From Parcubacteria group bacterium Gr01-1014_8 (lineage in GTDB: Bacteria > Patescibacteriota > Minisyncoccia > Phycocordibacterales > UBA2100): 64,000 nucleotides of DNA. Shown piece by piece: positions 750 to 51,130 of the stretch. The notes under the pieces are model-generated. The model did not search any database and was not told where the DNA came from. It was given only the letters and a program-made list of their open reading frames with translations. The translations under genes were made by a program, and so were the position numbers. Location of the stretch: contig VMGC01000001.1 in the NCBI GenBank assembly GCA_007376385.1, positions 288,001 to 352,000 on the forward strand. Direction: 5' to 3'. How positions within the stretch are numbered: the first letter of the stretch is position 1; each line of letters opens with the position of its first letter.

Positions 750-1016
750 ATGCACTACGTTTACACTCTCCTCAGTACGAAAGATAAGAATCTTTATGTT
801 GGGTGTACGAATAATCTTCGACGAAGACTTGCCGAACATGATGAAGGCGAATCCTTTGCTACTGCACCGCGCAGACCATTTAAGCTCGCGTATTATGAAG
901 CTTACGTCGCTGAAGATGATGCATTGAGGCGAGAGAAAATGCTTAAGCTGCGCGGTCAAGCACGAAAACATCTTATGACTCGTTTAGTCGCAAGTCTTCG
1001 CCAAGCGCAGAATTAG
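750..1016 (+). CDS. stand-alone GIY-YIG nuclease-superfamily mini-protein
   Basis: 88 aa. YVYTLLS...LYVGCTNNLRRRLAEHDEG matches the GIY-YIG motif (GIY...YVG...R...E). Small solo GIY-YIG ORFs are common selfish or unknown-function genes. Confidence 0.6.
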   Translation: MHYVYTLLSTKDKNLYVGCTNNLRRRLAEHDEGESFATAPRRPFKLAYYEAYVAEDDALRREKMLKLRGQARKHLMTRLVASLRQAQN

Positions 1017-2126: not shown

Positions 2127-3091
2127 GAACCTCTGTAGAACTCGATGGTCTTTTTCAATCCTTCAGCAAAGGATGTGCGCGGCTTCCAGCCGAGCTGTTT
2201 TTTTGCCTTCGACGAATCGAGGGAGTAACGAACATCGTGTCCGGGTCTGTCAGTTACGTACGTTATCATACGCGAGGCTTTATGAAGCGCGCGAAGCAGT
2301 ATTGTAGTGAGTTTTATATTGGAAAGCTCTGTTGTTCCTCCGAGATTGTATATTTCTCCACTTTTGCCTTTGTGGAACGCGCTATTGATTCCCTCGACAT
2401 TATCTTCGACGTATATCCAATTGCGGATGTTTCTTCCGTTTCCGTAGAGCGGCACCTTTTTATTCGCTAACAGATGAGTGATAAAGAGCGGAATTATCTT
2501 TTCCTCATACTGAAAAGGCCCATAATTGTTCGAAGAGCGCGTGATAACAGTGTCAAGACCAAATGTTTTGTTGTACGCGCGCACGAGCATTTCCGCGCTC
2601 GCCTTTGATGCACTGTACGGACTATTCGGGAACAATCCGTCGTCCTCTTTCGATGAGCGGGCGTGTGGGGCGAGCGAGCCGTATACTTCATCAGTCGAAA
2701 TGTGATGAAAGCGCTTCAGTTGGTATTTTTTCGCCAGTATAAGCAGGTTGTGCGTGCCGATGACATTTGTTTCTATAAAAATGTCGGGGTTCGAAATGCT
2801 GACATCGACGTGGCTCTCGGCCGCAAAGTGAATGATGTGCGTTGGTCTGTATTTCTTGAAAATTCTTTCCATTGTTTTAAGGTCGCGGATGTCAGCTTTT
2901 TCGAACGTGTAATTCGATTCTGATTCGACCTGCACATTCTTAATTCTGCCGGCGTAGGTTAGGGCGTCGACATTGATGAAAAAATACTTCGGGTACTTTC
3001 GCACAGCCCAATTGAGATAATTACTGCCGATGAATCCCGCGCCACCGGTGACAAGAATGCGTTTTGCGAATTTATTTCTTGTGGCGGTCAT
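2123..3091 (-). CDS. rmlB: dTDP-glucose 4,6-dehydratase
   Basis: 322 aa. N-terminal ILVTGGAGFIGSNYL Rossmann motif and the extended-SDR YSASKAS catalytic Y-x3-K characteristic of RmlB/RfbB. Convergent 4-nt overlap with the aminotransferase gene. Confidence 0.85.
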   Translation of the reverse strand: MTATRNKFAKRILVTGGAGFIGSNYLNWAVRKYPKYFFINVDALTYAGRIKNVQVESESNYTFEKADIRDLKTMERIFKKYRPTHIIHFAAESHVDVSISNPDIFIETNVIGTHNLLILAKKYQLKRFHHISTDEVYGSLAPHARSSKEDDGLFPNSPYSASKASAEMLVRAYNKTFGLDTVITRSSNNYGPFQYEEKIIPLFITHLLANKKVPLYGNGRNIRNWIYVEDNVEGINSAFHKGKSGEIYNLGGTTELSNIKLTTILLRALHKASRMITYVTDRPGHDVRYSLDSSKAKKQLGWKPRTSFAEGLKKTIEFYRGS

Positions 3092-3839
3092 GTTTCTTTT
3101 TTATGTGATGGGATACGTCTATGAGACTATCTATCGTGCCGATGTCGCTCCACTTCTTTTTTAGGTGTGTAGCTCGCAACTTGCCTTCCTTGATGTATTT
3201 GTTGTTGACGTATGTTATTTCGTATTCACCACGTGCAGACGGTTTTTGGTCCCTCATCTTTTCAAAGACCGTGTTGTCGTATAGGTAGATGCCCGCGACA
3301 GCGAGATCACTCTTTGGTTTTTTCGGCTTTTCTTCGATGCTAAGCACTTCGCCTTCCTTTCCCAAAGTCGCGATGCCAAATCGATGAGGGTCTGGGACTT
3401 TCTTCAAGAAAACCATTGCTCCTTCTGTGAAGTCTCGGATATGCGCGCTAAGGTCGTCTTCAAAATAATTGTCGCCGAGGAAAAGAATGCATGGCTCATC
3501 GCCGACGTAGTCGCGCGCAATATACAGTCCTTGAGCGATTCCTCCTGGTTCGTTTTGGATACCGTAGGCAATTTGTATCTGCGATTCGTCCGTATTACGT
3601 GGCTTCCAATGCTGACCACTGCCAAGCGTGCGGACGAAACTGTCGATATGGTCTGGCGAAGTAACGACCATGATGCGACTGATACCTGCTTCAACCAATT
3701 TTTCTATGGCGTGGTATATGACCGGCTTATCGTACAGGGGGAGGAGATGCTTGTTAGTCGCAAGGGTGAGGGGGCGGAGTCTTGTACCTGAGCCGCCGGC
3801 GAGGATAATAGCCTTCCGTATCTTCATAAGTTTTGCCAT
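3072..3839 (-). CDS. rmlA: glucose-1-phosphate thymidylyltransferase
   Basis: 255 aa. KAIILAGGSGTRLRPLTLATNKHLLPLYDKPVIYH is the sugar-nucleotidyltransferase signature. Immediately upstream of rmlB on the same strand, with a 20-nt overlap. Confidence 0.75.
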   Translation of the reverse strand: MAKLMKIRKAIILAGGSGTRLRPLTLATNKHLLPLYDKPVIYHAIEKLVEAGISRIMVVTSPDHIDSFVRTLGSGQHWKPRNTDESQIQIAYGIQNEPGGIAQGLYIARDYVGDEPCILFLGDNYFEDDLSAHIRDFTEGAMVFLKKVPDPHRFGIATLGKEGEVLSIEEKPKKPKSDLAVAGIYLYDNTVFEKMRDQKPSARGEYEITYVNNKYIKEGKLRATHLKKKWSDIGTIDSLIDVSHHIKKKHDRHKK

Positions 3840-4626: not shown

Positions 4627-5454
4627 ATGACAAAACGGCTTGCGGTAGTTGCTGGCGGATGGCATTTCCCCTTAGGTTTTTATGAAGCGATGTCTCGTCA
4701 GCAAATACCTGAAGGCTGGGAAGTTGAGTTTTTTTGCGTCTCTCATCGCGACCCGAAGCATTCTAAAGAGGAGAAAGAAGAAATCCTAGCAAACCTCGGT
4801 TGGAGTCATCGCGAAGCACTCGACCGGGTTCTCTACAAGGATTTTGCAACTATCGAATCAATGAGCGCGCTTGGGTGGAAGTACAAGGAATATCCGAACA
4901 CGATAGGCGATTGGGGCATGTCGAATCAATGGCTCGGGGAACATGATTACAAAGGGTACGAAATGTTTCTTTTTACGCACGACGATAATTTGATACTTAC
5001 CGATAAAATGCTCGTGGAAGTTTTGCAGGATACAAAAGACTGGCTCGTACTCTCGAACTCAACAGGCAATTCTCAGCGTCGTTTGCGGCAATGGCTAAGG
5101 CTACCGAAGAAATTGCATTTGCGCGGGTCATTCGAATTCTTCAGACACGAGATGCTCGATAAGATGGGAGGGAAATTTGACCTTTCGGAAACGACGCTTA
5201 CGCGCGAGGGTACGGTAGATACGCCGGGAAAATTCACGGCTCTTTCTGATTGGGGAACTACTGTTTTTCCGCTCGAGAAACTTATTGCACGAGAAAATCT
5301 TCAATCACGAATTCATTTTCTTTCGCAGTATTATCGAATGAGTAAATACTGTCTTGAAGGCGAGCGCGGGTTCATTCACAGCACTCACTTCTCAAATACC
5401 GCAGAAGAGGAGAAGGGGCTTAGAAGCATCGCAGCAGGACAAAAAGCCGCATGA
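4627..5454 (+). CDS. hypothetical protein (no recognisable family; possible unrecognised transferase, contains an FTHDDN acidic motif)
   Basis: 275-aa ORF with ATGA 4-nt overlap to the downstream GT4 gene, tightly packed in an operon-like arrangement. Confidence 0.45.
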   Translation: MTKRLAVVAGGWHFPLGFYEAMSRQQIPEGWEVEFFCVSHRDPKHSKEEKEEILANLGWSHREALDRVLYKDFATIESMSALGWKYKEYPNTIGDWGMSNQWLGEHDYKGYEMFLFTHDDNLILTDKMLVEVLQDTKDWLVLSNSTGNSQRRLRQWLRLPKKLHLRGSFEFFRHEMLDKMGGKFDLSETTLTREGTVDTPGKFTALSDWGTTVFPLEKLIARENLQSRIHFLSQYYRMSKYCLEGERGFIHSTHFSNTAEEEKGLRSIAAGQKAA

Positions 5455-6581
5455 ACATTGTATACATCACAAGTGCGCGTATACCGTCAGAACGGGCCTA
5501 TGGCTATGCCATCACCAAACTCTGCGAAGAGTGGGGGAAGGCGGGGCATGATGTGAGGTTGATATTGCCGGAGAGGGAACATGGTCTGCAAGATGACCTG
5601 TTCGAATACTACAAACTCGAGAGGACATTCACCATAGAAAAGATTTCGGCAAGTGACTGGATTGGAAAAAGTCTGTCGACATCGCGCGTTCACTTTGCCC
5701 TCGATCTTCTTGCGTTCGTGATCTCGTTGCGAACAGTACGATTTGATGCGGACACAGCCATCTACACCCGTGAATATCTGCTTGCGCTCACACTTCCGGC
5801 ACGGAATCTTTTTTTGGAAGTGCACACGGTACACAGCAAAGGTTTTTTGTTTCGCCGTGCATTAGGACGGGTGCGCGGGATCGTTGCGATAAGTGAGGGC
5901 GTGAAAAAGGAACTGGTCGCTCTTGGTGTCGCAGAAGAAAAAATTAAGGTTGCTCATGACGGGGTCGATCTGGATCCATTTGCACAGGCTCCGGCGGACA
6001 GAAGCGTCTGGAGGCAGTTTGGTGTCGAGCCGTCACAAAATGTTGTGTTATACGCCGGTCATTTTTACGAGTGGAAAGGAGCCGATACCTTGGCGGTCGC
6101 TGGAAAAATGCTCCCATCTGATGTGCACACGGTCCTAGTAGGAGGTGTAGATAACGAGCTGCGCGACTTTAGAGAGAAATATGCCGCTTCAAATGTGCAC
6201 ATCGCGCCGCATCGATCACGCGCAACGATACCTGTCTTACTGAAAAGCGCGGATGTGCTCGTTCTTCCGAACAGCGCAAAGGCGGAAATCTCGCGCTCAC
6301 ACGCCTCGCCGCTGAAGCTGTTCGAATACATGGCCGCGGGCGTCGCAATTGTTGCGTCCGATGTGCCTAGTCTGCGTGAAGTACTTTCTGAGGATACAGC
6401 TTTTTTCTTTAAGGCCGATGACTCGAATAGTCTCGCGGAGGTTATCGGCCGCGTGCTCAAATTGCCGGACGACGCACATTCCAGAGCTGAACAGGCAAAG
6501 AAAAAGGCGGACACATACACATGGCGTGGTCGCGCTGCCGACATCGCACAATTTCTCGACAGACTGGGGAGCAAGGGATAG
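5451..6581 (+). CDS. glycosyltransferase family 4 (GT-B)
   Basis: 376 aa. C-terminal E-x7-E type motif (ASPLKLFEYMAAGVAIVASDVPSLREVL) typical of GT4/GT1 retaining transferases. Confidence 0.8.
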   Translation: MNIVYITSARIPSERAYGYAITKLCEEWGKAGHDVRLILPEREHGLQDDLFEYYKLERTFTIEKISASDWIGKSLSTSRVHFALDLLAFVISLRTVRFDADTAIYTREYLLALTLPARNLFLEVHTVHSKGFLFRRALGRVRGIVAISEGVKKELVALGVAEEKIKVAHDGVDLDPFAQAPADRSVWRQFGVEPSQNVVLYAGHFYEWKGADTLAVAGKMLPSDVHTVLVGGVDNELRDFREKYAASNVHIAPHRSRATIPVLLKSADVLVLPNSAKAEISRSHASPLKLFEYMAAGVAIVASDVPSLREVLSEDTAFFFKADDSNSLAEVIGRVLKLPDDAHSRAEQAKKKADTYTWRGRAADIAQFLDRLGSKG

Positions 6582-6591
6582 CATAGACTTT

Positions 6592-8403
6592 ATGCGGTTT
6601 TTTAGGCGCCTCGGGAATATGTTCCGCCTGCTTCGGCGGGCATATGGTGCATATTCGACGCAAATAGCGGCGCTTGCTGCCCTGGGCTTTTTGGGCGGAT
6701 TGCTTGAAGGCATCGGCATCAATGCGGTTGTCCCGCTTCTGACATTCATTTTTACGGAGTCCGCGCAGGCGTTTGACCCGATCTCGAATATTCTGCGGTC
6801 AGTGTTCACATTCATCGGCATTGATTTCGCCCCCAAATATTTGCTCGCGTTCATCGTGATCATGTTCCTTGCGCGCGCTGCGGTGATGTACGCGCTCTCG
6901 TATATTCAGACGGTCATATCATTCAACTATGAGCGAGATACGCGAGTACGCGTGTTCGAAACCCTCCTGCGTTCTTCGTGGTCGCATCATCTGGCAAGGA
7001 AATTCGGACATCTGGAGACTATCATCATGATAGACGCTCCGGCGAGCACGAATCTTCTCCGCAAGTTGAGCAATCTCATCACGCTCGCGACGGGGCTCAT
7101 AATGTATCTCATTGTGGCGTTCAATATTTCTCCTGCCGTTACATTTCTGACGTTCGCCGTCGGTGTATGCGGGCTCCTTTTCTTCAGATACTTTTTGACG
7201 ATGATTCACGCGAGAAGTTCGGAGCGTGTCGCGCTCAACAAAGAAGTCGCCCACTACATGGGGGAATACGCGGCGGGCGCGAAGGCGATAAAGGCATCCG
7301 GCACTGAGGAGGTTGTCGCGGAAAGCGGTGTGGATCTTTTTTCCCGTTTAAGGAATATTTCTGTAAGCATATCCCTTGTACAGCAGGTAGCCGTACTCAT
7401 TATTCCGCCGGCCGGGATTCTATATATCGCGCTCATATTCGGTGTTGCGTACCGTACTGATTTCATCCAGCTTGCCGCGCTTCCCGCTATTATTTACCTC
7501 ATTTACCGCATCTCGCTGTACGCTCAGCAAGGGCAGGACCACCTGCAGGGTATTCAGGAACTCGTCCCTCATTTGCAGAGCGTGCTCGCGTTCGAGGAGA
7601 AATCGCGACAGAAAGAAGAGCACATCGGCGGAGATAAATTATTCGCCTTCCACAAGGAACTTCGATTTGACGATGTTCATTTTTCCTACGACGACGGTCG
7701 CGAAGCGCTAAAAGGCGTGTCATTTACTGTTAAGGGGCGCTCAACGGTTGGTATTGTCGGTCCTTCCGGTGCAGGGAAGACGACATCGGTCGATTTGATG
7801 CTGAGGCTCTTGGAGCCGACGAACGGGGCGATCACACTCGATGGTGTAAATGTGCGCGATATTTCACTGCAATCATGGCGCGCAAAAACGGGGTATGTAC
7901 CACAAGAACCGTTCCTGTTGCACGATACGATACGGAACAACGTTCTTTTTCAATTTAAAGGAAACGGAGGACAAGACGCGCTTTCCGATGCAGATGTGTG
8001 GCACTTTCTCAAGATGGCGGATGCGGAAGATTTTGTTCGCGCGATGCCGGAGGGGCTCGATTCAATGGTCGGGGACAGAGGCGTAACACTTTCAGCAGGG
8101 CAGAGACAAAGGCTCGTCATTGCGCGTGAGCTTGCTCGAAAGCCGGAACTCCTCATTCTCGACGAGGCGACGAGCGCGCTCGATAGTGAATCAGAGGCGC
8201 GTTTGCAGAAGGTCATCCAGAAACTCAAGGGTTCGGTTACTATCGTCATTATTGCCCATCGTCTCTCGACTATCTTGGAGTCGGATAAGCTTGTTGTTCT
8301 AAAAGAAGGCACGGTAGCTGAGCCAATAGCCAGCCCTGAAGCGATGCTTCGTACCGCCGGCTCGTATTTAAGCCACATTTTCTCGCTGAATAAATCACTA
8401 TGA
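6592..8403 (+). CDS. ABC exporter, fused permease plus ATPase (MsbA/PglK-like; candidate lipid-linked glycan flippase)
   Basis: Track ORF 6349..8403 overlaps the GT4 gene, so it is trimmed to the ATG at 6592 (MRFFRRLGNMF...). Has an N-terminal 6-TM domain, Walker A GPSGAGKTT, signature LSAGQRQRLVIAREL, and Walker B LLILDEATSALD. Confidence 0.8.
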   Translation: MRFFRRLGNMFRLLRRAYGAYSTQIAALAALGFLGGLLEGIGINAVVPLLTFIFTESAQAFDPISNILRSVFTFIGIDFAPKYLLAFIVIMFLARAAVMYALSYIQTVISFNYERDTRVRVFETLLRSSWSHHLARKFGHLETIIMIDAPASTNLLRKLSNLITLATGLIMYLIVAFNISPAVTFLTFAVGVCGLLFFRYFLTMIHARSSERVALNKEVAHYMGEYAAGAKAIKASGTEEVVAESGVDLFSRLRNISVSISLVQQVAVLIIPPAGILYIALIFGVAYRTDFIQLAALPAIIYLIYRISLYAQQGQDHLQGIQELVPHLQSVLAFEEKSRQKEEHIGGDKLFAFHKELRFDDVHFSYDDGREALKGVSFTVKGRSTVGIVGPSGAGKTTSVDLMLRLLEPTNGAITLDGVNVRDISLQSWRAKTGYVPQEPFLLHDTIRNNVLFQFKGNGGQDALSDADVWHFLKMADAEDFVRAMPEGLDSMVGDRGVTLSAGQRQRLVIARELARKPELLILDEATSALDSESEARLQKVIQKLKGSVTIVIIAHRLSTILESDKLVVLKEGTVAEPIASPEAMLRTAGSYLSHIFSLNKSL

Positions 8404-9128: not shown

Positions 9129-10183
9129 GCCCCATTAAAAATAACTCGCCCAAGCCCTCCGGGCGCGCTAGCGCGGGCGCTATTTCTAACGGGGCGAGAA
9201 TTGGCGTTGTGGGAAACGGTTCGATGGGGAGGCGGAGAATAAAACATTCTCAGATGTATGGATATACAGACATCACGGGTTGGGATATTAGGTCGGACAG
9301 GCGAAAGGAGGTCGAATCAAAGTTCGGAATACAAACGGTGAAGAGTCAGAAGGATTTTGAGAACTCAAAGTTCGATGCGCTATTCATTTGTGTGCCTCCG
9401 GCCGAACACTATTACTACATGAAGCTTGCGGTGAAGAACGGTTGGAATTTTATGGTGGAGAATCCAGTGTGGCATAAGGTGAAGGGACTCGATGTGCTTC
9501 AAAGGGAAGTGAAGAAGAAAAAACTGGTGGCGAACGTCAGTTGCAACGTCAGGTTCCTGAAAGCGACGCAGAGGATAAAGCAGCTTGTTCGAGATGATGT
9601 CATTGGACCGATATTGTCGGGCGTAGCCGAAGTCGGCGAATATTTGCCTGATTGGCATCCGTACGAACCGTATACCGATTACTATCCGTCCAAAAAAGAA
9701 ATGGGCGGCGGTATCGACGCGATGTGTGATCTCGACTGGCTTGTCGATATTTTCGGCGATATCCGCAGGATGAACTGTGTGTATTCGAAAAAGTCGAGCC
9801 TAAAAATCAATACCTATGACATCATTGATTTCATTCTAGAGTTCAAGTTAGGACCGCAGATAGTTCTGCATACCGACATGCTTCAATCGCCGTACGGCAG
9901 AGCGGTGAAGCTCATAAGTGAGCGCGGTGTTATCGTGTGGGAATACAAAGAACAGATAGTAAAATATTATGATCGTCGAACCAAGAAGTGGACAAAGTTC
10001 GACGAATCGGGTTCGAGAGTTAATTTCGACAATAACATCACGACGACATGGGCTGAGCAGATGTATATGGACGATTCATTTCACTTCTTCAAGTGTCTGA
10101 AAGGCGAGGCGAAGCCGCTTAACACTATAGAAAGCAATTCGAAACTTCTGAAACAGCTTCTCAAAGCCATCGACTACGCCTGA
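9125..10183 (+). CDS. Gfo/Idh/MocA-family NAD(P)-dependent oxidoreductase (PtmF-like)
   Basis: 352 aa. N-terminal Rossmann segment ARIGVVGNGSMG and ...DALFICVPPAEHYYYMKLAVKNGWNFMVENP pattern of the Gfo/Idh/MocA fold. Confidence 0.6.
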   Translation: MSPIKNNSPKPSGRASAGAISNGARIGVVGNGSMGRRRIKHSQMYGYTDITGWDIRSDRRKEVESKFGIQTVKSQKDFENSKFDALFICVPPAEHYYYMKLAVKNGWNFMVENPVWHKVKGLDVLQREVKKKKLVANVSCNVRFLKATQRIKQLVRDDVIGPILSGVAEVGEYLPDWHPYEPYTDYYPSKKEMGGGIDAMCDLDWLVDIFGDIRRMNCVYSKKSSLKINTYDIIDFILEFKLGPQIVLHTDMLQSPYGRAVKLISERGVIVWEYKEQIVKYYDRRTKKWTKFDESGSRVNFDNNITTTWAEQMYMDDSFHFFKCLKGEAKPLNTIESNSKLLKQLLKAIDYA

Positions 10184-42398: not shown

Positions 42399-44614
42399 CA
42401 GTGTTACAATGGGCGACACCTATGACTCTCGAGAAAGTGCTACGCTGGATCGCGATCATCGGGATTTTCGCGCTACCGTTCATTGTTCTCATCGTCTCGC
42501 GCTCGCTCTTTTTTCCGTTCATCACCGGAAAAAACTTTGCATTCCGCATTATTGTCGAGATAGTCGGCGGGGCGTGGGTGGCGCTCGCGCTCGTAAACCC
42601 GCTCTATAGGCCGAGGCGCTCATGGGTCTTGCTGGCGTTTACGCTGTTTGTCGTGTTGATAGGGATCTCAGATGCATTTGGCGTCAATCCGTTCAAGAGC
42701 TTTTGGAGCAATTATGAGCGCATGGAAGGATGGGTAACGCTTGCTCATCTCCTGGTGTATCTTGTTGCGGCCGTATCAATTCTAAACACGGAGCAATTAT
42801 GGAAACGGTGGTGGCATACATCGCTCGGCGTTTCAGTTCTTGTCGCATTTCACGGACTTTTTCAGCTTTTGGGATTCATAACTATCAATCAGGGGGGTGT
42901 TCGGCTCGATGCAACTTTTGGCAATGCGACATATCTCGGCGTGTACATGCTTTTCAATGTCTTTGTTGCGGCGCTCTTTCTTTCGCGTGCATGGAACGAG
43001 CATCCCCGCGAGCGCTTCATGTACTCGTCGCTCTACGGCGCACTGATCATTCTTGATACGTTCATACTGTTTTTCACCTCGACACGCGGTGCCATCCTCG
43101 GTCTCATCGGGGGCGTCTTATTCTCAGCAGCGCTGCTTATTGTGCTTTCGCCGAAATCACGCACGGCGTGGTATGCGGGGGCAGCTATCGCGGGGCTTGT
43201 CGTCCTTGCCGGCATGTTTTTACTCGTGAAAGATCAGGCATGGGTGCAAGGGATCGAGCCGTTGCACCGCCTGGCGTCCATCGCTGACGAGGGTGTTCCC
43301 GGTGCGCGGGTCATGAACTGGGGGATGGCGATGCAGGGATTTAAAGAGAGGCCTATCTTAGGTTGGGGCCAAGAGAATTATGCGGTCGTGTTCGACAAAT
43401 ACTATGACCCGCAGATGTTCGGGCAGGAGCCATGGTTTGACCGCGTACACAATATCATTTTCGACTGGCTCATTGCTGGCGGCCTGCTTGGCCTACTTCT
43501 GTATCTTGGCATATATGTCTTCGCGCTTCTTGCCATTTGGCGTTCGGGAGGATTCGCGCAATACGAACGCGCCATTCTTACGGGGCTTTTTGCCGGGTAC
43601 TTTTTCTATCTTATTTTTACATTCGATAACATTACAAGTTATCTTATGTTTGTTTCCCTTCTCGCGTACATCACGATGCGTTCTTCTTTTGACGCGAGGC
43701 CGATCTTTGATCAGATACTTCCCAAAAACACGCTTCCTTTCTTCGCGGTGCTTGCAGTTTTTCTTGTATCAGGTCTTTCATGGTCTGTGAACGCACATGC
43801 GCTCTTGGCGAACAAGCTCATCATTCTTGCTCTCTCGCCGCATTCGGAGGGCGCTTCAAAAAATTTGGAATATTTCAAAGCATCTATCGCGTACGGAACA
43901 TATGGGACGCAAGAAGCGAGAGAGCATTTATCGCAGACAGCAGCTCAGGCCATTCAGAGCACGGGGGTTCCTCTCGATGTACGCAGGGGATTTTTAGAGA
44001 CGGCAGCAAAGGAGATGAGCACGCAGGCCGAGGACTCGCCCCTCAATGCGCGTTTTCCATTTTTTCTAGGCGTACTTCTGGACTCAGCGGGGGACTATAA
44101 CAATGCAAAGCTGGCGCTCGAAAGAGCGAGAGAACTCTCTCCCAATAAACAAGCGATACTATTTGAGCTGGGCCTCAATGCACTCGCTCGGGGTGATAAT
44201 GCGGCAGCACTCAGCATTTTTGAGAGCGCATACAAACTAGCATCGAATTTTGCGGAAGCGCGAACATTCTACACTGCTGTTGCTATCCACACGGATGATC
44301 AAGCAGTTGAAGATCAGATGATACGCGTCATGGTTGAGAATGATCAGGCATTGGAGCCGCGTATTCTCTCGGCCTATGCTTCAAAAAACAGATACGATAA
44401 GATCGCAGCGCTTGCAGCCGCCCAGATACAAATGCATCCAGACGATGTTCAAGCGCATGTGACGTACTCCGCTGCGCTTTATAAAATAGGGAATGTGGAA
44501 GACGCTGTTCGCTCCCTGGAAGAGCTGAAACGCGTCATACCAGGTGCTGCCGCACAGGCAGATTCGTTGATAGCAGATATGTTGAACGGGACGTTAAAGG
44601 TTGGTCAGCAGTAG
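42395..44614 (+). CDS. Wzy_C-domain protein (O-antigen ligase/WaaL- or PglL-type oligosaccharyltransferase-like) with C-terminal TPR repeats
   Basis: 739 aa. Multi-TM N-terminal region with WFDRVHNIIFDWLIAGGLLGLLLYLG (Wzy_C-like H-N-x-x-L...G motif). The C-terminal roughly 280 aa are alanine-rich TPR-like repeats. Confidence 0.55.
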   Translation: MTVLQWATPMTLEKVLRWIAIIGIFALPFIVLIVSRSLFFPFITGKNFAFRIIVEIVGGAWVALALVNPLYRPRRSWVLLAFTLFVVLIGISDAFGVNPFKSFWSNYERMEGWVTLAHLLVYLVAAVSILNTEQLWKRWWHTSLGVSVLVAFHGLFQLLGFITINQGGVRLDATFGNATYLGVYMLFNVFVAALFLSRAWNEHPRERFMYSSLYGALIILDTFILFFTSTRGAILGLIGGVLFSAALLIVLSPKSRTAWYAGAAIAGLVVLAGMFLLVKDQAWVQGIEPLHRLASIADEGVPGARVMNWGMAMQGFKERPILGWGQENYAVVFDKYYDPQMFGQEPWFDRVHNIIFDWLIAGGLLGLLLYLGIYVFALLAIWRSGGFAQYERAILTGLFAGYFFYLIFTFDNITSYLMFVSLLAYITMRSSFDARPIFDQILPKNTLPFFAVLAVFLVSGLSWSVNAHALLANKLIILALSPHSEGASKNLEYFKASIAYGTYGTQEAREHLSQTAAQAIQSTGVPLDVRRGFLETAAKEMSTQAEDSPLNARFPFFLGVLLDSAGDYNNAKLALERARELSPNKQAILFELGLNALARGDNAAALSIFESAYKLASNFAEARTFYTAVAIHTDDQAVEDQMIRVMVENDQALEPRILSAYASKNRYDKIAALAAAQIQMHPDDVQAHVTYSAALYKIGNVEDAVRSLEELKRVIPGAAAQADSLIADMLNGTLKVGQQ

Positions 44615-44718
44615 ACAAAGATAGAAAGATGATATAATTGCGCGGTGAGTGCCATTGCCTGTCTGCGTGCAGTACGCACAGGCAGAAAAGATGGCGTCTC
44701 TCTAGAAAGTCGCGTAGA

Positions 44719-44747
44719 TTCCCCCTCCGGGGGGATTTACGTTTTTG
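44719..44747 (+). terminator. candidate rho-independent terminator (TTCCCCC-TCC-GGGGGGA followed by TTTACGTTTTTG)
   Basis: GC hairpin plus T-tract about 105 nt downstream of the Wzy_C gene stop. The 14-mer GATTTACGTTTTTG recurs at 44953-44966. Confidence 0.4.
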
Positions 44748-44975
44748 TACATTGCCCGAACATTGTTCGAGTGAGGCAGTACAAAAAGGTAGATCCGGCC
44801 GCAGCTGGGATCCCCGCGTGCGGGGAGGCGAGGCGTGCCTACGAGCGACCTAGTTTTCTTATGAGCATAGCGAATTAGAAAACTGGAAGTACTCGTAGTG
44901 GTGCACATAGTATTTTGAAGCGGCATCGCGACAAAATACTTAGTGACTCGGAGATTTACGTTTTTGGATGATACA

Positions 44976-45070
44976 CCCCGTGAGATACAACATATATACA
45001 TTTTGCTCGTGGGTGGTTTTGTTGCTAACACCTGATTACATCGACAGTTCTAATGCGCTATCTCATGGGG
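44976..45070 (+). repeat. 95-nt element with 12-bp terminal inverted repeats CCCCGTGAGATA ... TATCTCATGGGG (copy A)
   Basis: Read directly. A second copy with the same termini lies at 48282-48375. Confidence 0.55.
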
Positions 45071-45400
45071 TACACTATTTGCATAAGGACCCAGTGTGGA
45101 GGGCGGCGGCACTCACATAGACTTTCACTTTGGAGCTCGCACCCGCCTTCCGCATTGGGTCTTTGCAAGTTAGACATTAGATAATGGAAATTAGACAAAA
45201 GAAATTTACAAAATAATTTTTTGCTTATTAAATCTAATTTCTAACTTCCACTTTCTATATATAAAGTTATCCACAGTATCGTCGAATAAAACATATTAAT
45301 CACGCAATGAGTGCAATAATAAAAAAAACGCATCTCGCGTAACTTGAATCTGCGAATGGTGCGGGTCGAATGTTTAGTCGCAGGGGCATCTAAAAAATCT

Positions 45401-45454
45401 ATGGCAAAGAAAAAGAAAGCAAAGAAAAAGGCAAAGCGATCGAAGAGACGCTAG
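45401..45454 (+). other. 17-codon poly-lysine micro-ORF (MAKKKKAKKKAKRSKRR*), about 100 nt upstream of secA
   Basis: ATG GCA AAG AAA AAG AAA GCA AAG AAA AAG GCA AAG CGA TCG AAG AGA CGC TAG read directly. No evidence of expression. Confidence 0.2.
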
Positions 45455-45556
45455 TCAGGCGTGCTTCGAAAGAAAAGACCCTCCATTGCGGAGGGTCTTT
45501 TCGTGCGCGACCAGAGACTGCGAAAATCAGTCATTAGTGTTAGGATGTGCCTCTGT

Positions 45557-48094
45557 ATGGCATTCTGGAAAGGGTTGTTTGGCGATACGAGTACCGCCGC
45601 TCTAAAAAGCGCGATGCCCATTGTCGCAAGTACAAATGCCCTTGAGGACGGTATTCGCGCGCTCTCTGACGATGCGCTGCGGGGTAAGACCGCAGAATTC
45701 AAATTGCGTATAGAAAAGGGCGAAACGTTGGAGGTCTTGGCGCCGGAGGCGTTTGCGGTCGTTCGTGAAGCTGCGCGCCGCACTCTCGGGCAGCGTCATT
45801 TTGATGTTCAGCTTGTGGGAGGCATGGTGTTGCACACTGGCGGCATCGCAGAGATGCGCACGGGCGAAGGAAAAACCCTAGTCGCTACATTGCCCGCATA
45901 TCTGAACGCGCTTACGGGGAGCGGTGTGCACGTCGTGACAGTCAACGATTATCTCTCCCGCCGAGACGGAGTATGGATGGGGGAGATCTATTATGCGCTC
46001 GGGATGTCAGTTGGTATTTTGAATCATGAAGCATCATACCGATACGATCCTGCACACGTGTCCAAAGATTTGATAGAGGAAGAGGATAAGGAACGTGACC
46101 AGCTAGGGAGTTTTAAAGTGATGCATGATTTTTTAGCGCCATGCACGCGTACCGAAGCGTACGCATCCGATATCACCTACGGAACCAACAACGAGTTTGG
46201 TTTCGACTATCTTCGGGACAACTTGGAATACGAGCCGGAAAAACTCCGCCAGCGGCTTCCCGATAAAGGAGGCTACAACTTCGCCATTGTCGACGAAATA
46301 GACTCCATTCTCATCGATGAAGCGCGAACACCTCTTATTATTTCTGCGCCAGTCTCGGATGCGGAGCGGCTCTATGACAGATTTGCGGCGATAGCGCGAG
46401 GGCTTGCGGCCGAAGAGGATTACACGGTTGATGAAAAACACCGCCAGATAGCTCTTACCGATGCAGGCATCGAGAAAGCCGAAAAGGCGCTCGGCGTCGA
46501 GAATATCTACACGGACGCCGGAATAAAGTTGGTGCATCACTTGGAAACAGCAGTGCGTGCTAAGGCCCTCTTCCAAAAAGATCAGGAGTATGTGGTTCGT
46601 GATGGTGAAGTCATCATTGTCGATGAATCAACTGGACGCATGCAGCCCGGCAGAAGGTGGAGTGAAGGCCTGCACCAGGCGATAGAAGCAAAGGAGGGGG
46701 TTGCAATTCAGCAAGAGTCCCGAACATTCGCTTCCATCACATTCCAAAACTACTTTCGGTTATATAAGAAGCTTGCGGGAATGACCGGAACTGCAGCAAC
46801 CTCATCGGAGGAATTCTATAAAGTATATGGTCTGAATACTGTTGCGGTGCCGACCAATGTGCCGCCAAAAAGGGAAGATCACGAGGACCTTATCGTGCAA
46901 ACCGAGAACGGCAAGATGAAAGCAATCGCCAGGCGAGTGAAAGAATTGCACGAAAAGGGCCAGCCGGTCCTTGTAGGCACTGTCTCTGTGGAAAAGAACG
47001 AGCTTCTTTCTGTTCACTTTAGGCAGGAAGGCATCCCGCACGAGCTATTGAATGCCAAGAATCACGAGAGGGAGGGAGAAATAATAGCCCAGGCCGGGCG
47101 ACGTGGTGCGGTAACCATTGCGACAAACATGGCAGGTCGAGGTGTTGACATAAAGCTCGGGGGGAATCCTGCCACGAATGAAGAGTACGAAGCCGTGAAA
47201 GAGCTTGGAGGATTGTTTGTCCTTGGAACCGAACGGCACGAGGCGCGCCGCATCGACAATCAGCTTCGGGGTCGTGCGGGGCGTCAGGGGGACCCCGGTG
47301 GGACACAGTTTTTTGTATCTTTAGAAGATTCACTCATGCGCATATTCGCCTCCGATGTCATCAAACGGGTGATGGGCACGTTCAAGATCCCTGAAGATGA
47401 ACCCATCTTCAATTCCATGATAACGAGGTCGCTTGAAAAGGCCCAGACTCGCATCGAAGAGTTGAACTTTGACGCTCGAAAGCATGTTTTGTCGTACGAT
47501 GATGTGTTGAATATTCAGCGCCAGTCGATCTACGCACGTCGTAGAGCGCTTCTGACGGGAGGGAATGACGCAGTTGACGATGAACTCGCGCGCATTGTCG
47601 AGCCCGATTCCGATGTTATGCGCGCATTGGATGAGCGGAAAAAAGAAATGGGGGAGATGTTCTACAGAGTCTCGAGGCGATTTCTCTTACAAACGGTAGA
47701 CTTTTTGTGGGTGGAGCATCTTGAAGCAATGGAGTACTTGCGCTCAAGTGTGAACTTGCGCGCATATGGGCAGCGAGATCCGCTTGTCGAATATAAGAAG
47801 GAAGGCTTGAAATTGTTCCAGACCATGGAAGGTTCCTACGACGCCAATGTTGTCCAGTCGCTCCCGAACGTCCTACAGGCACAGAAAGATGGTGCTGTGC
47901 GTCCCGCAGCTTCCAAAAGTTTCTTTGCTAAGAGTGTAAGCGCAATTACAAACACCAAGAAAGGCCATGATGAGAAGAAATACGAGCGAAACGAAAAAGT
48001 AACGATCACAAATGGTACAGAAACAAAAGAGATGAAATTTAAGAAAGCAGAGCCGCTTCTGGCAGGAGGGGAGTGGAAGATCGTACAGAAATAG
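45557..48094 (+). CDS. secA: preprotein translocase ATPase SecA
   Basis: Track ORF 45461..48094 trimmed to the ATG at 45557 (MAFWKGLFGD..., typical SecA N-terminus). Walker A MRTGEGKT, DEAD-like IVDEIDSILIDEARTPLIIS, and the full DEAD motor, preprotein cross-linking and helical scaffold regions. Confidence 0.9.
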   Translation: MAFWKGLFGDTSTAALKSAMPIVASTNALEDGIRALSDDALRGKTAEFKLRIEKGETLEVLAPEAFAVVREAARRTLGQRHFDVQLVGGMVLHTGGIAEMRTGEGKTLVATLPAYLNALTGSGVHVVTVNDYLSRRDGVWMGEIYYALGMSVGILNHEASYRYDPAHVSKDLIEEEDKERDQLGSFKVMHDFLAPCTRTEAYASDITYGTNNEFGFDYLRDNLEYEPEKLRQRLPDKGGYNFAIVDEIDSILIDEARTPLIISAPVSDAERLYDRFAAIARGLAAEEDYTVDEKHRQIALTDAGIEKAEKALGVENIYTDAGIKLVHHLETAVRAKALFQKDQEYVVRDGEVIIVDESTGRMQPGRRWSEGLHQAIEAKEGVAIQQESRTFASITFQNYFRLYKKLAGMTGTAATSSEEFYKVYGLNTVAVPTNVPPKREDHEDLIVQTENGKMKAIARRVKELHEKGQPVLVGTVSVEKNELLSVHFRQEGIPHELLNAKNHEREGEIIAQAGRRGAVTIATNMAGRGVDIKLGGNPATNEEYEAVKELGGLFVLGTERHEARRIDNQLRGRAGRQGDPGGTQFFVSLEDSLMRIFASDVIKRVMGTFKIPEDEPIFNSMITRSLEKAQTRIEELNFDARKHVLSYDDVLNIQRQSIYARRRALLTGGNDAVDDELARIVEPDSDVMRALDERKKEMGEMFYRVSRRFLLQTVDFLWVEHLEAMEYLRSSVNLRAYGQRDPLVEYKKEGLKLFQTMEGSYDANVVQSLPNVLQAQKDGAVRPAASKSFFAKSVSAITNTKKGHDEKKYERNEKVTITNGTETKEMKFKKAEPLLAGGEWKIVQK

Positions 48095-48131
48095 TCCCGC
48101 CGCTTAAATTTATCTGTCGAGGATAGCAAGC

Positions 48132-48160
48132 GAAATGCGAAAGCGCAGGTTTCGCATTTC
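48132..48160. repeat. perfect 11-bp stem hairpin (GAAATGCGAAA-GCGCAGG-TTTCGCATTTC), about 38 nt after the secA stop, with no U-tract
   Basis: Read directly in the sequence. Confidence 0.45.
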
Positions 48161-48281
48161 CGAGCGACACAGACAGCAAAGGTTCAAAGCCCCGCGGCTT
48201 GCCTGCCTGTGCGATGCACGCAGACAGGCCGCGGAATTTGGGACCGAGGAACCTTTATATTCCGTAAGAAAATAGTGTATG

Positions 48282-48375
48282 CCCCATGAGATAGATCATC
48301 TAGATCGGTGATGCATATAGTTCAGTAGTAACATATGAGATTCCTGAAAAAGTGGCGTGAATTTATCTCACGGGG
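48282..48375 (+). repeat. 94-nt element with 12-bp terminal inverted repeats CCCCATGAGATA ... TATCTCACGGGG (copy B), ending 12 nt before gatB
   Basis: Read directly. Same termini and length as the copy at 44976-45070, but the internal sequence diverges. Confidence 0.55.
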
Positions 48376-48387
48376 TATGCTTCCGGC

Positions 48388-49833
48388 ATGTCATACAAGG
48401 CAACGATAGGGCTTGAAATTCATGCAGAATTGAAGACAAGTACAAAAATGTTTTGCTCGTCTCAGAACAACGCCGACGAAACAAGAGCGAATGTCCACGT
48501 CTGCCCCATTTGTTTGGCGCATCCGGGTACGCTGCCTGTCATCAATAGGGAAGCGGTGCGGCAGGTGCTCCGCGTCGGGGTTGCGCTTAAAGGTACGTTG
48601 GCAGATTACACGGAATTTGACCGCAAGAATTATTTTTATCCAGATCTGCCTAAGGGCTACCAATTATCACAGTATGAATTTCCCCTTGTGTCAGGCGGAA
48701 GTTTAAATGGAGTAGACATCACGCGAGTTCACTTAGAAGAGGACACAGCGAGTTCAATTCATGACGAGATGACAGGGGAAACCCTTATTGATTACAATCG
48801 CGCGGGGGTGCCTTTGATGGAACTCGTTACGGAGCCAGTGATCCATAGCGCAAAGGAAGCAGGTGATTTTGGCCGAGAATTACAATTGCTCTTACGTTAT
48901 CTAGGTGCATCAGACGCTGACATGGAAAAAGGGCGCATGCGACTTGAAGCAAATATTTCTGTCTCAAATTCCGACGAACTAGGCACGAAGGTCGAAATAA
49001 AGAATATTAACTCTTTCCGGGCTATGGAGCGCGCGGTTGAACACGAGATAGCTAGGCAGACAGATATCCTCGATATGGGGCAAAAAATAGCTCAAGAGAC
49101 TCGCGGATGGGATGACTCTAAACAAGCGACGTTCAGCCAGCGTGTGAAGGAGGGTAGTGCGGATTATCGTTACTTTCCAGATCCAGATCTGCCGAGCCTC
49201 AAACTTTCGCAGATCGAGGAATTCTCAGAAGATGCGCTTAAAAAGACCCTTCCCGAGTTGCCCAGTGAGAGACGCCAGCGGTATATACATGCAGGCATTA
49301 AAGCTGCGGATGCTGAGCAATTTGCTGCATACCCACGCCTGGCAGACTTTATGGACAAAGTGATAGTTGGGAACATCAAGGATGAGGCATTTATACAACG
49401 TGCGACTAACTACATAGTGAACGACCTCGTGAGCATTATCCGAGACATCAATAAACGAGATACGGATTTGCGAGGCGAGATACCTATCTCCTCTATGAAC
49501 TTTACAAAGATTATGCGTATGCTCGGTGATAGAAGGATCTCGTCGAGGGGTGCGAAGGACCTGCTATCCTTGGTCATAAAGGAAGGCCGCGATCCGGAAA
49601 CGGTTGCGTCGGAGCGCGGTCTTCTTATAGATGCGGCCGGACTGGACGTCGAATCTGCGGTTCACAATGTTCTCACAAGGAATAAAGAAGTAGTTGCGGA
49701 CTATTTGTCCGGGAAGCAGAATGCGCTTCAATATTTGATCGGACAATGCATGAAAGAGCTCAAAGGTGCAGTTGAACCGACGGAGCTAAGAGTGATATTG
49801 ATGCAAACAATCTCATCTCGTAGCGCTACTTAA
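48388..49833 (+). CDS. gatB: aspartyl/glutamyl-tRNA(Asn/Gln) amidotransferase subunit B
   Basis: 481 aa. MSYKATIGLEIHAELKTSTKMFC...CPICLAHPGTLPV and the C-terminal YqeY-like tail have the canonical GatB signature. Confidence 0.9.
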   Translation: MSYKATIGLEIHAELKTSTKMFCSSQNNADETRANVHVCPICLAHPGTLPVINREAVRQVLRVGVALKGTLADYTEFDRKNYFYPDLPKGYQLSQYEFPLVSGGSLNGVDITRVHLEEDTASSIHDEMTGETLIDYNRAGVPLMELVTEPVIHSAKEAGDFGRELQLLLRYLGASDADMEKGRMRLEANISVSNSDELGTKVEIKNINSFRAMERAVEHEIARQTDILDMGQKIAQETRGWDDSKQATFSQRVKEGSADYRYFPDPDLPSLKLSQIEEFSEDALKKTLPELPSERRQRYIHAGIKAADAEQFAAYPRLADFMDKVIVGNIKDEAFIQRATNYIVNDLVSIIRDINKRDTDLRGEIPISSMNFTKIMRMLGDRRISSRGAKDLLSLVIKEGRDPETVASERGLLIDAAGLDVESAVHNVLTRNKEVVADYLSGKQNALQYLIGQCMKELKGAVEPTELRVILMQTISSRSAT

Positions 49834-50404: not shown

Positions 50405-51130
50405 TTGTCCACGCAAGGTCGGACCTTGCTTATATCTGCGTATTATACTGATTTGGTGGCAAAACGACGAAAAGTCGCCTATATAGCACCCTTTGATAGT
50501 GATAAGTACTATCACGTGCATAACGACGGAATTGATAGGCGAATACTATTCAGCTCCAAGCAGGATTTTGACCGCTTTGAAGCATATTTGTATCTGCTGA
50601 ATTCCACTGAAAGCCCGCGTGCGGCTAATTTTTTTACAGGCAATCGCCAGAACGAAATATTTCAAACGGGGAGAGGCGATAAATTAATAGCACTCGGAGC
50701 TTATTCGATCACGCCGCATGAATTTCACTTGCTTGCTGTGCCTCTGGTCGATGGGGGGATGGGGAAATTCATGCAGAAGCTTCAGACTGGATACACGATG
50801 TACTTCAATAGCAAGTACCAGCGTATGGGACGCATATTCCAGTCCTCATATAAGGCGGAATCAGCTCGATCAGCCGAGCATCTAAAATATATGTTCTGTT
50901 ATATTCATTTAAATCCTGCGCAGATCTTTGACAAAGAATGGGATTCGACAAACGAGAGGAGCGGACTTGCAACACACATATTGAGGGCAATGAATTATCG
51001 CTACTCGAGCGCAAATGAATATACCTCTCAAAAATTTATCATCACGACGCCGCATGAATTTCCGCCCTACATCAGAAGGGTGAGAGATGCGCGCGCGTAC
51101 TTGAAACTTTGGTCAAAGTTTAAAGAATAG
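50405..51130 (+). CDS. REP-associated/IS200-like Y1 (HuH) tyrosine transposase (PF01797-type, RayT-like); start codon uncertain
   Basis: Motifs YHVHNDGIDRRILF..., ...SITPHEFHLLAVP (HuH-like) and ...YFNSKYQRMGRIFQSSYKAES...YIHLNP (catalytic Tyr region) match the REP-tyrosine-transposase/IS200 pattern. The track uses a TTG start, and a perfect palindrome GCAAGGTC-G-GACCTTGC lies within the first about 25 nt, so the true start may be further downstream. No tnpB is present. Confidence 0.6.
   Translation: MSTQGRTLLISAYYTDLVAKRRKVAYIAPFDSDKYYHVHNDGIDRRILFSSKQDFDRFEAYLYLLNSTESPRAANFFTGNRQNEIFQTGRGDKLIALGAYSITPHEFHLLAVPLVDGGMGKFMQKLQTGYTMYFNSKYQRMGRIFQSSYKAESARSAEHLKYMFCYIHLNPAQIFDKEWDSTNERSGLATHILRAMNYRYSSANEYTSQKFIITTPHEFPPYIRRVRDARAYLKLWSKFKE

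Follow-up and report, generated by a model that had tools for sequence, protein, structure and literature searches.

The closest described counterpart of the elements reported here is Ssn, a single-domain GIY-YIG protein of ~94 aa (cd10448) that binds and cuts only single-stranded DNA next to the NTS/SRM hairpin repeat of 20–50 nt (Chenal et al. 2025, Nat Commun; PMC11893778). The ssn gene is flanked by the repeat, of which up to hundreds of dispersed copies exist, a layout that the authors called insertion sequence (IS)-like and compared with REP/RAYT systems, that is, repetitive extragenic palindromic (REP) sequences and REP-associated tyrosine transposases (PMC11893778). We analyzed a 64-kb stretch of contig VMGC01000001.1 from Parcubacteria group bacterium Gr01-1014_8 (positions 288,001 to 352,000; hereafter the window), in which two elements, A and B, end in shared 12-nt arms, CCCCRTGAGATA...TATCTCAYGGGG. 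A and B belong to a widespread, previously undescribed family of mobile DNA, and behind them is an undescribed family of GIY-YIG cassettes. Both elements are insertions into the 5′ half of TAnnnT -10 hexamers. They are probably non-coding members of the family, akin to miniature inverted-repeat transposable elements (MITEs); the coding form is a ~280-nt cassette for an ~86-aa GIY-YIG protein, and the nuclease would act on A and B in trans.

Judged by sequence, the family works like the Ssn/SRM pair in layout but not in the repeat it uses. Both systems comprise a ~90-aa single-domain GIY-YIG protein, a gene with its own short inverted-repeat motif at either end, and gene-less motif copies that are scattered near other genes, mostly intergenic, with a strand-specific asymmetry. 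The SRM pattern (HGTCWY..hairpin..RNCYNB) gave 0 matches on both strands of the window versus 4 in an Azospirillum control. On plasmid AZO_p3 of Azospirillum lipoferum 4B (L242, 255106–256145), an Ssn-type gene lies between sufB and sufC and is flanked on each side by a doublet of inverted SRM hairpins (CGTCATCCCCGCGAAGGCGGGGATCCAG, spacers 26–29 nt); REPIN-like doublets exist in the canonical Ssn system, too. Whereas Ssn has a compact 20–50-nt hairpin at each gene end, the family has one arm per gene end, pairing across 70 or 255 nt, and in the commonest cassette type the right arm is itself coding, for the final four residues, Y-L-T-G. The cassette protein aligns with the SRM-flanked L242 homologue at 36% identity over the N-terminal 70 aa only (pairwise E 2e-14), and its C-terminal third reads ...KYLKTAWGKRYIKNRL.. 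where Ssn has ..KRLKKWNRDWKIRLIEEHNPDW.. instead. The hosts are candidate phyla radiation (CPR), Planctomycetota-Verrucomicrobiota-Chlamydiota (PVC) and soil phyla, which the Ssn paper does not discuss, and 4-nt duplications, empty sites and -10-box targets have no counterpart in that paper.

The family also resembles other small dispersed repeats. Like REP sequences, bacterial interspersed mosaic elements (BIMEs) and REPINs, it consists of inverted short-repeat doublets around a ~70-nt spacer, gene-less copies far outnumber a small flanked gene, copies persist vertically at fixed loci over long times, and single-strand hairpin recognition is presumed. Unlike them, it has a hydrolytic GIY-YIG enzyme in place of an HUH tyrosine enzyme; where a REP unit is an imperfect palindrome of 20–40 nt after GTAG, the 12-mer CCCCRTGAGATA lacks both GTAG and palindromic structure, and the interiors are not self-complementary. 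With bacterial MITEs (Correia/NEMIS, RUP, ERIC) the family shares a size of ~100 nt, terminal inverted repeats, a short AT-rich duplication, promoter-adjacent positions and some tandem arrays. A and B themselves are small, carry terminal inverted repeats and no coding capacity, and have both a duplication and empty sites, the latter in a distant relative, contig L240. In contrast to MITEs, copies in one genome share only their arms and not their interiors, no DDE-transposase parent was found, and the same arms are kept across phyla; the coding partner with the same ends encodes a GIY-YIG nuclease and not a known transposase class. One 95-nt copy (L026) extends a 23S rRNA helix with its arms as the stem, in the manner of an intervening sequence (IVS), but most copies, A and B among them, lie outside RNA genes.

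Elements A and B and their family

The arms single out A and B within the window (Table 1). The exact 12-mer occurs four times in the 64 kb, always as an arm of A or B, and no single half-sites were found there. An earlier note on this DNA had placed both elements and their terminal sequences exactly, with near-equal lengths and differing interiors, and had put the end of B 12 nt ahead of gatB; we confirm the gatB ATG at 48388, and a global identity of 0.54–0.58 (z 0.7–1.8) marks the two interiors as unrelated. A search for further degenerate copies in the window returned a sole candidate, a doubtful 65-nt pair at 9130–9194. Its degenerate arms, CCCCATTAAAAA...TTTCTAACGGGG, lie in the 5′ end of an open reading frame (ORF) and resemble the arm variant of locus L102 described below, probably by chance.

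A and B are inverted with respect to each other. The lone variable arm position, position 5, reads G..T in A and A..C in B on the + strand. The 19 nt past the right arm of A (TACACTATTTGCATAAGGA) are an inverted repeat of the 19 nt preceding the left arm of B. Because the position-5 asymmetry is opposite and the flanks are inverted, the elements face in opposite directions, and not in the same one as the note had it. Its view that purine/pyrimidine variation in the arms keeps G-U pairing holds for A on the + strand but not for B, which gives G-T pairing only on the - strand and A-C on the gene strand. The two copies do bracket secA as described, but that secA lies between them is incidental: A sits within an 850-nt intergenic region, ~470 nt before ATG 45545, the likely secA start, which a terminator-like hairpin precedes, and B sits on the gatB promoter.

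Table 1. Features of A, B and their junctions, and the GIY-YIG paralogue, in window coordinates
Feature	Position	Strand	Length	Remarks
Element A	44976-45070		95 nt	Ends CCCCGTGAGATA...TATCTCATGGGG
Left 4-nt target-site duplication of A, TACA	44972..44975		4 nt	Direct repeat with 45071-45074
A left arm CCCCGTGAGATA	44976..44987	+	12 nt	G-type half-site; the same 12-mer ends >115 genomic and >120 metagenomic elements
A interior	44988..45058		71 nt	Without coding remnant or conserved structure
A right arm TATCTCATGGGG	45059..45070	+	12 nt	T-type half-site; G-T wobble with left arm on +
TACACT, -10-like hexamer rebuilt by duplication	45071..45076	+		First 4 bases are the right copy of the duplication
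Element B	48282-48375		94 nt	Ends CCCCATGAGATA...TATCTCACGGGG
Left 4-nt target-site duplication of B, TATG	48278..48281		4 nt	Direct repeat with 48376-48379
B left arm CCCCATGAGATA	48282..48293	+	12 nt	T-type half-site as read on the - strand
B interior	48294..48363		70 nt	Unrelated to A interior
B right arm TATCTCACGGGG	48364..48375	+	12 nt	
TATGCT (-10) + tccggc + gatB ATG	48376..48390	+		Leaderless-type promoter/start; first 4 bases are the right copy of the duplication
Armless single-domain GIY-YIG gene	750..1016	+	88 aa	In sugar-biosynthesis cluster; PF01541 E 1.9e-15

The same arms recur in many bacterial phyla. We scanned one genome per species (596 Gb) for CCCCRTGAGATA-N55-85-TATCTCAYGGGG, allowing total lengths of 79–109 nt. 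Where the note had allowed that only these two copies might exist, >115 exact matches are listed, against ~0.3 estimated by chance. Among the matches listed, hosts span at least six phyla (CPR/Patescibacteria, Planctomycetota, Verrucomicrobiota, Omnitrophota, Ignavibacteria and KSB1). At finer rank they include Kaiser-, Nomura-, Yonath- and Saccharibacteria, other Paceibacterota, Omnitrophota, Verrucomicrobiia, KSB1, Pirellulales/Planctomycetaceae/Phycisphaerales, Ignavibacteria/Melioribacteraceae, Bacteroidota and one alphaproteobacterial bin. Total length in this set has its mode at 95–96 nt and is mostly 93–99 nt. Interiors are unrelated between genomes, and near-identical copies occur inside some single genomes. 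Further size classes lie at ~34, ~60 and ~280–295 nt, tandem arrays are joined by 3–4 nt, and compact versions of ~35 and ~50–60 nt exist elsewhere, for example at L008. A soil/PVC subtype has 16-nt arms (TTYA...TRAA). Viral contigs gave no family match; a plasmid collection gave only five distant matches, one of which supplied the Ssn/SRM control. A text search of the literature with four 12-mers returned only unrelated eukaryotic primers.

Arm pairing is asymmetric between strands, and conservation is confined to the ends. Across 130 listed copies, position 5 is G..C in 52, G..T in 42 and A..C in 36; A..T never occurs, compared with ~12 cases expected under independence. CPR-type copies mostly have the G-T wobble on one strand and the A-C mismatch on the other. 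The element has stayed in place at orthologous loci of different species: at L019, L002 and L093 the arms and the adjacent 4 nt are 100% identical, interiors are ~50–54% identical (z ~2) and coding flanks 69–81% (z 8–15). Either purifying selection acts on the ends of an element fixed in place, or insertions have hit one target repeatedly. Shuffled sequence folds as well as the interiors do (median z -0.06). Rfam gave no match at gathering score in the whole window and chance-level matches only, at E up to 1, in 44600–45560; a tRNA/tmRNA scan found none.

A and B are inserted into -10 hexamers

A syntenic contig shows both sites uninterrupted. Contig L240, whose GatB is 71% identical, has the gene order Wzy_C/TPR – secA – gatB – RayT-like – HTH (helix-turn-helix), with no arm within 9.4 kb and the sites of both A and B empty. 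At site B, 24 nt separate the L240 secA stop from the gatB ATG and include a single TAGAGT hexamer (...gtgcTAGAGTagcgacATG); the window reads ...gtgTATG, then B, then TATGCTtccggcATG. At site A, L240 has a single TATGCT hexamer (...gccgTATGCTatatttttATAAGGA...AGGGCGGCGGCACTCACATATGATTTTCACTTTGGAGCTCGCACCCG), and the window reads ...gatgaTACA, then A, then TACACTatttgcATAAGGA...AGGGCGGCGGCACTCACATAGACTTTCACTTTGGAGCTCGCACCCG. Comparison of the L240 and window junctions shows that a TAnnnT hexamer was split after its fourth base and that four bases were duplicated, giving flanks of TACA/TACA at A and TATG/TATG at B.

Short duplications also accompany other family members. CPR-type copies have 4-nt direct repeats just outside the arms, such as TATA, TACA, TAGA, TGTA and TCTA. 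Non-palindromic repeats of this kind number 22 versus 1.3 expected from shuffling, with 29 palindromic ones besides. A search with joined flanks over all loci returned mostly paralogous integrase genes and the 23S rRNA case, and no clean empty sites.

Insertion leaves the promoter layout intact. Because it duplicated four bases, an intact -10 box adjoins the outer end of the element, and both the -10 box and the start site are preserved: gatB retains -10 + 6 nt + ATG, and A retains TACACT before a conserved non-coding block. The genome of the window is largely leaderless, with almost no Shine-Dalgarno sequences and many genes preceded by TAnnnT + 6–8 nt + ATG. Across the family, the distance from the element end to an outward ORF start peaks sharply at 12 nt (19 cases, with 6 at 13 and 6 at 14), which is the spacing of hexamer + 6 nt + ATG. 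TT is weakly enriched at the -35 position inside the element. The half-site on the side of the adjacent gene, scored by eye, is T-type in 15 cases and C-type in 11, with no clear bias. In promoters with no need of a -35 element, such an insertion would probably do no harm.

The region between A and secA holds further conserved features. The non-coding block downstream of A (45083–45160, AGGGCGGCGGCACTCACATAGACTTTCACTTTGGAGCTCGCACCCGCC) lies within a long stem, has a near-identical counterpart in L240 (~765–840) and gave no Rfam match; it may be a small RNA or a secA leader transcribed from the TACACT box. A conserved 17-codon Lys/Arg-rich micro-ORF, MAKKKKAKKKAKRSKRR, follows in both genomes (45401–45454; L240 ~1258–1311) and may encode a regulatory leader peptide. 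The terminator-like hairpin stands after it, at 45467–45507, just upstream of secA.

The GIY-YIG cassette

Longer elements with the same arms carry a nuclease gene. At locus L069 (KSB1), a 281-nt element forms a tandem array with three copies of ~95 nt. Its gene specifies a GIY-YIG protein of 86 aa, the right arm forming the last codons of the gene (TAT CTC ACG GGG, Y-L-T-G). A metagenome scan for arms 245–275 nt apart lists >120 matches with a mode of 278 nt. An ORF reads through the right arm in ~95 of them, with the left arm 2–13 nt before the ATG. In about 80 of these ~95 ORFs a GIY-YIG protein with the ending ...REKYLKTAWGKRYIKNRLRxYLTG can be recognised; ~70 of them are intact and the others carry frameshifts or truncations. 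In ~15 only the C-terminal part is left. Nine more long forms, read by eye, hold the same gene on either strand with its stop just within an arm (apparently disrupted in L212); three or four of the nine have CPR-like TATA flanks. The long-form matches at L184 and L173 are tandem arrays of short non-coding copies, and 6–8 listed long forms were left unassigned. In most of the >120 listed long forms, as in L069 and L112, the gene is immediately bounded 5′ and 3′ by arms.

Genes and gene fragments also occur next to arms at other loci. Remnants lie at arms in L065 and L097, and genes abut arms in L008, L015, L051, L064 and L112. At L102, where the gene lies between pheS and pheT, the arm is of a variant form (GCCCGTTAGAGAT...) with an identical 2-nt insertion on both sides. 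Most ~95-nt copies, A and B included, show no trace of a GIY-YIG gene. We considered and dropped the idea that interiors are decayed GIY-YIG genes: only L065 retains a remnant, and A and B have none.

The cassette proteins form a large family known by generic names. They are 85–90 aa long, with PF01541 over residues 4–71 and no other domain (Pfam GIY-YIG E 5e-17); the nearest Protein Data Bank entries are the UPF0213 proteins 1ywl and 1zg2 (E ~1e-6). The family comprises >2,700 clusters, named only "GIY-YIG nuclease family protein" or "putative endonuclease", and the C-terminal YLTG is present in 95 of the 120 nearest clusters. The armless paralogue in the window (Table 1) encodes a protein with 45% identity to the L069 cassette protein and 48% to a CPR-type one; it is a candidate trans-acting partner of A and B.

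Cassettes also occupy integron-integrase genes. The ~280-nt form interrupts such genes in 31 of 120 listed metagenome loci (including L116, L120, L124, L125, L126, L131, L136, L141, L145, L153, L159, L162, L168 and L169), compared with 11 of 515 in a random-position control. Four different conserved positions are used: after ELLGH, between GYDI and RTVQ, between CHTF and (K/R)HSFATH, and between GIGV and (K/R)SPLD. Native junctions there look like TT^AA or AT^AA. With the insert removed, L125 yields a full integron integrase (TIGR02249, 456 bits against a cut-off of 265).

Structural RNA genes are a further landing site. In L026, a 95-nt copy (2815–2909) replaces a helix tip in the domain I/II, helix-25 region of a 23S rRNA gene (2173–3135), a classical IVS site. 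The relative L109 has a short helix there, and the arms would lengthen the rRNA helix as in an intervening sequence. Immediately after the cassettes at L204 (4768–5045), L212 (1420–1698) and L147 (4257–4534) comes AGGAAAGTCCG, which is the RNase P RNA P4 strand; these cassettes therefore appear to be placed in the P3 hairpin of rnpB. The L204 downstream region (5115–5540) matches Rfam RNaseP_bact_a at 57.6 bits (E 8e-17), under the gathering score.

Mechanism and competing explanations

The Ssn analogy suggests how a nuclease could act on A and B in trans. In single-stranded DNA, the arms would pair into a 12–16-bp stem, which in CPR copies contains the position-5 G-T wobble on one strand only. 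A nuclease of the family, provided in trans, would recognise this stem; the 750–1016 paralogue is a candidate. The enzyme would bind and nick beside it, as Ssn does beside its hairpin. Because GIY-YIG enzymes are hydrolytic, host functions, repair or ligation, would finish the movement. Melted promoter DNA would be the preferred target. The interior would act as a spacer, constrained in length and free in sequence, and the ends would stay intact over long evolutionary times through the nuclease's need to recognise them or through a role at the level of the host.

Several points weigh against this reading. Hydrolytic GIY-YIG nucleases are incapable of strand transfer alone, and we infer from Ssn that a GIY-YIG protein moves or cuts these elements. 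The 64-kb window contains no arm-flanked cassette, and its one GIY-YIG gene (750–1016) lacks arms and has a different C-terminus. L240 is related at only 71% GatB identity, and its junctions were aligned by eye, MAFFT having misplaced the gaps. Family members were collected by an exact-arm pattern, so arm invariance across the set is by construction. Soil/PVC-type copies lack a clean 4-nt duplication, so that the chemistry of insertion may vary from one subtype to another. A host function explains the strict conservation of both arms at orthologous loci at least as well as selfish mobility does.

Two further readings carry lower probability. It is less likely than not that the ~280-nt cassette is an autonomous mobile element in its own right, which would then be the smallest known and would represent a new class of prokaryotic DNA transposon or homing element built on a hydrolytic, ssDNA-specific nuclease. 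The 95-nt copies such as A and B would be its MITEs, and it would enter by preference DNA that is transiently single-stranded or hairpin-prone: leaderless -10 hexamers in CPR bacteria, 23S and RNase P helix tips, and conserved integron-integrase motifs in soil bacteria. It would persist there since its arms re-form a helix or rebuild the -10 box. It is unlikely, on our assessment, that the elements are host regulatory modules, in which an arm pair ~83 bp apart would form a conserved two-site operator or an element upstream of the promoter, and a DNA-binding protein, possibly a domesticated GIY-YIG, would control leaderless promoters such as that of gatB. Complete conservation of arms and the adjacent 4 nt at orthologous loci with randomised interiors, interiors tight in length and free in sequence, the 12-nt peak of ORF starts and the weak TT enrichment at -35 would all suit an operator, and regulation is compatible with a mobile origin. 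But an ORF start falls within 60 nt in only 78 of 130 copies, and by sides (95 of 260) at the same rate as at random control positions (1600 of 4360). Copies also lie inside a 23S rRNA gene, in or beside RNase P RNA and inside integrase ORFs; the 93–99-nt length spread would put the two sites out of helical phase; and in the window such a module would serve one of ~60 genes, with no lone half-sites found.

The remaining alternatives are far less probable. The earlier note had offered a family of small structured RNAs, each closed by the conserved 12-bp helix around an interior that varies, and we now consider this very improbable. The arms do pair perfectly or with a G-U wobble, and copies in rRNA and RNase P RNA genes suggest stem formation in RNA, but there is no Rfam match, interiors fold like shuffled sequence (median z -0.06 as above) and the stem is conserved by sequence and not by covariation. 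Promoter-sited copies lie upstream of the inferred transcription start, B has an A-C pair on the gene strand, and long forms hold a protein gene in the "loop". No more credible is a classical MITE of an IS1380/piggyBac-type DDE transposon. Such elements have CCC... termini and a 4-bp duplication, recalling the CCCC termini, the 4-nt duplication at TNNA and the TT^AA look of native soil junctions here, and the piggyBac arm, CCCTAGAAAGATA, may resemble the family arms. Against it, 235 loci yielded no DDE transposase enclosed by the arms or next to them. Nor was a DDE, HUH or serine/tyrosine recombinase found inside the arms, and the coding relatives encode GIY-YIG instead. An all-against-all BLAST for recurrent neighbour proteins at 115 loci found at most seven loci per family, orthologous housekeeping proteins and no transposase. 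The note's general view of a MITE/REP-like mobile element survives in outline, given the dispersed family, the 4-nt repeats and the empty L240 sites; its choice of mobilising enzyme does not. That enzyme was a RayT-like HUH tyrosine transposase encoded at 50405–51130, which would move A and B as REPIN/BIME doublets, an option we rate as remote. Two inverted short repeats with a ~71-nt spacer resemble REPINs, the ORF lies 2 kb from B, and HEFH and YIHLNP motifs can be read in it by eye, alongside weak Y1_Tnp and REP_Tyr_transpos matches. These matches are below threshold (Y1_Tnp E 0.0026, 18.3 against a cut-off of 23 bits; REP_Tyr_transpos E 1.3e-4, 21.9 against 80 bits), no 12-mer arm stands beside the gene, and the arms have no 5′ GTAG and are not palindromes themselves. 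L238, L240 and L241 keep the gene in synteny, and none of the three has arms within ~9 kb; the L240 copy (6041–6781, 46% identical) has lost the HUH histidines and the tyrosine. A homologue occurs at 1 of 115 element loci, about the chance level, and no readable ORF of the >120 listed long forms holds a Y1 gene. We rejected RayT as the mobilising partner on its sub-threshold scores, the lack of arms and its synteny in armless relatives; the gene tied to the arms is GIY-YIG.

A GIY-YIG family acting on A and B in trans would extend what is known of nuclease-repeat pairs. The Ssn paper could only speculate on IS-likeness; the present family adds duplications, empty sites, coding and non-coding forms, and two-sided variant arms. 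It carries the pairing of nuclease and repeat into CPR/Patescibacteria, PVC and soil phyla, with a wholly different repeat. In leaderless, -35-independent genomes it suggests a harmless way to land, in which the -10 box is split and rebuilt by duplication. It would account for the ~95-nt "palindromes" that recur, for broken contigs and for the long intergenic stretches by housekeeping genes in CPR metagenome-assembled genomes. The >2,700 protein clusters now have a candidate DNA target, the arms, and could be screened as sequence-specific ssDNA nucleases. Interruption of integron integrases hints at conflict between two folded-ssDNA systems.

The neighbourhood of secA and gatB has further features of its own. 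In this lineage gatB keeps the Y1/RayT-like gene as its neighbour in synteny, and the absence of the HUH and Tyr motifs from one relative's copy suggests that the gene is domesticated and possibly non-catalytic. A second GC-rich hairpin repeat, with cores GCCTGTCTGCGTGCA and CTGCCTGTGCG, lies inverted on each side of secA (44650–44695 and 48190–48235); GCCTGTCTGCGTGCA has only two copies in the window, at 44657 on the + strand and 48215 on the - strand. The 190 nt between secA and B are absent in L240 and different in L236, another assembly of the same strain. The contigs of L236 and L237, which have an identical gatB, start 160–190 nt upstream of gatB, just outside B, and assemblies seem to break in the repeat-rich secA-B spacer. 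Past ~53 kb in the window, GC content rises and GC skew reverses.

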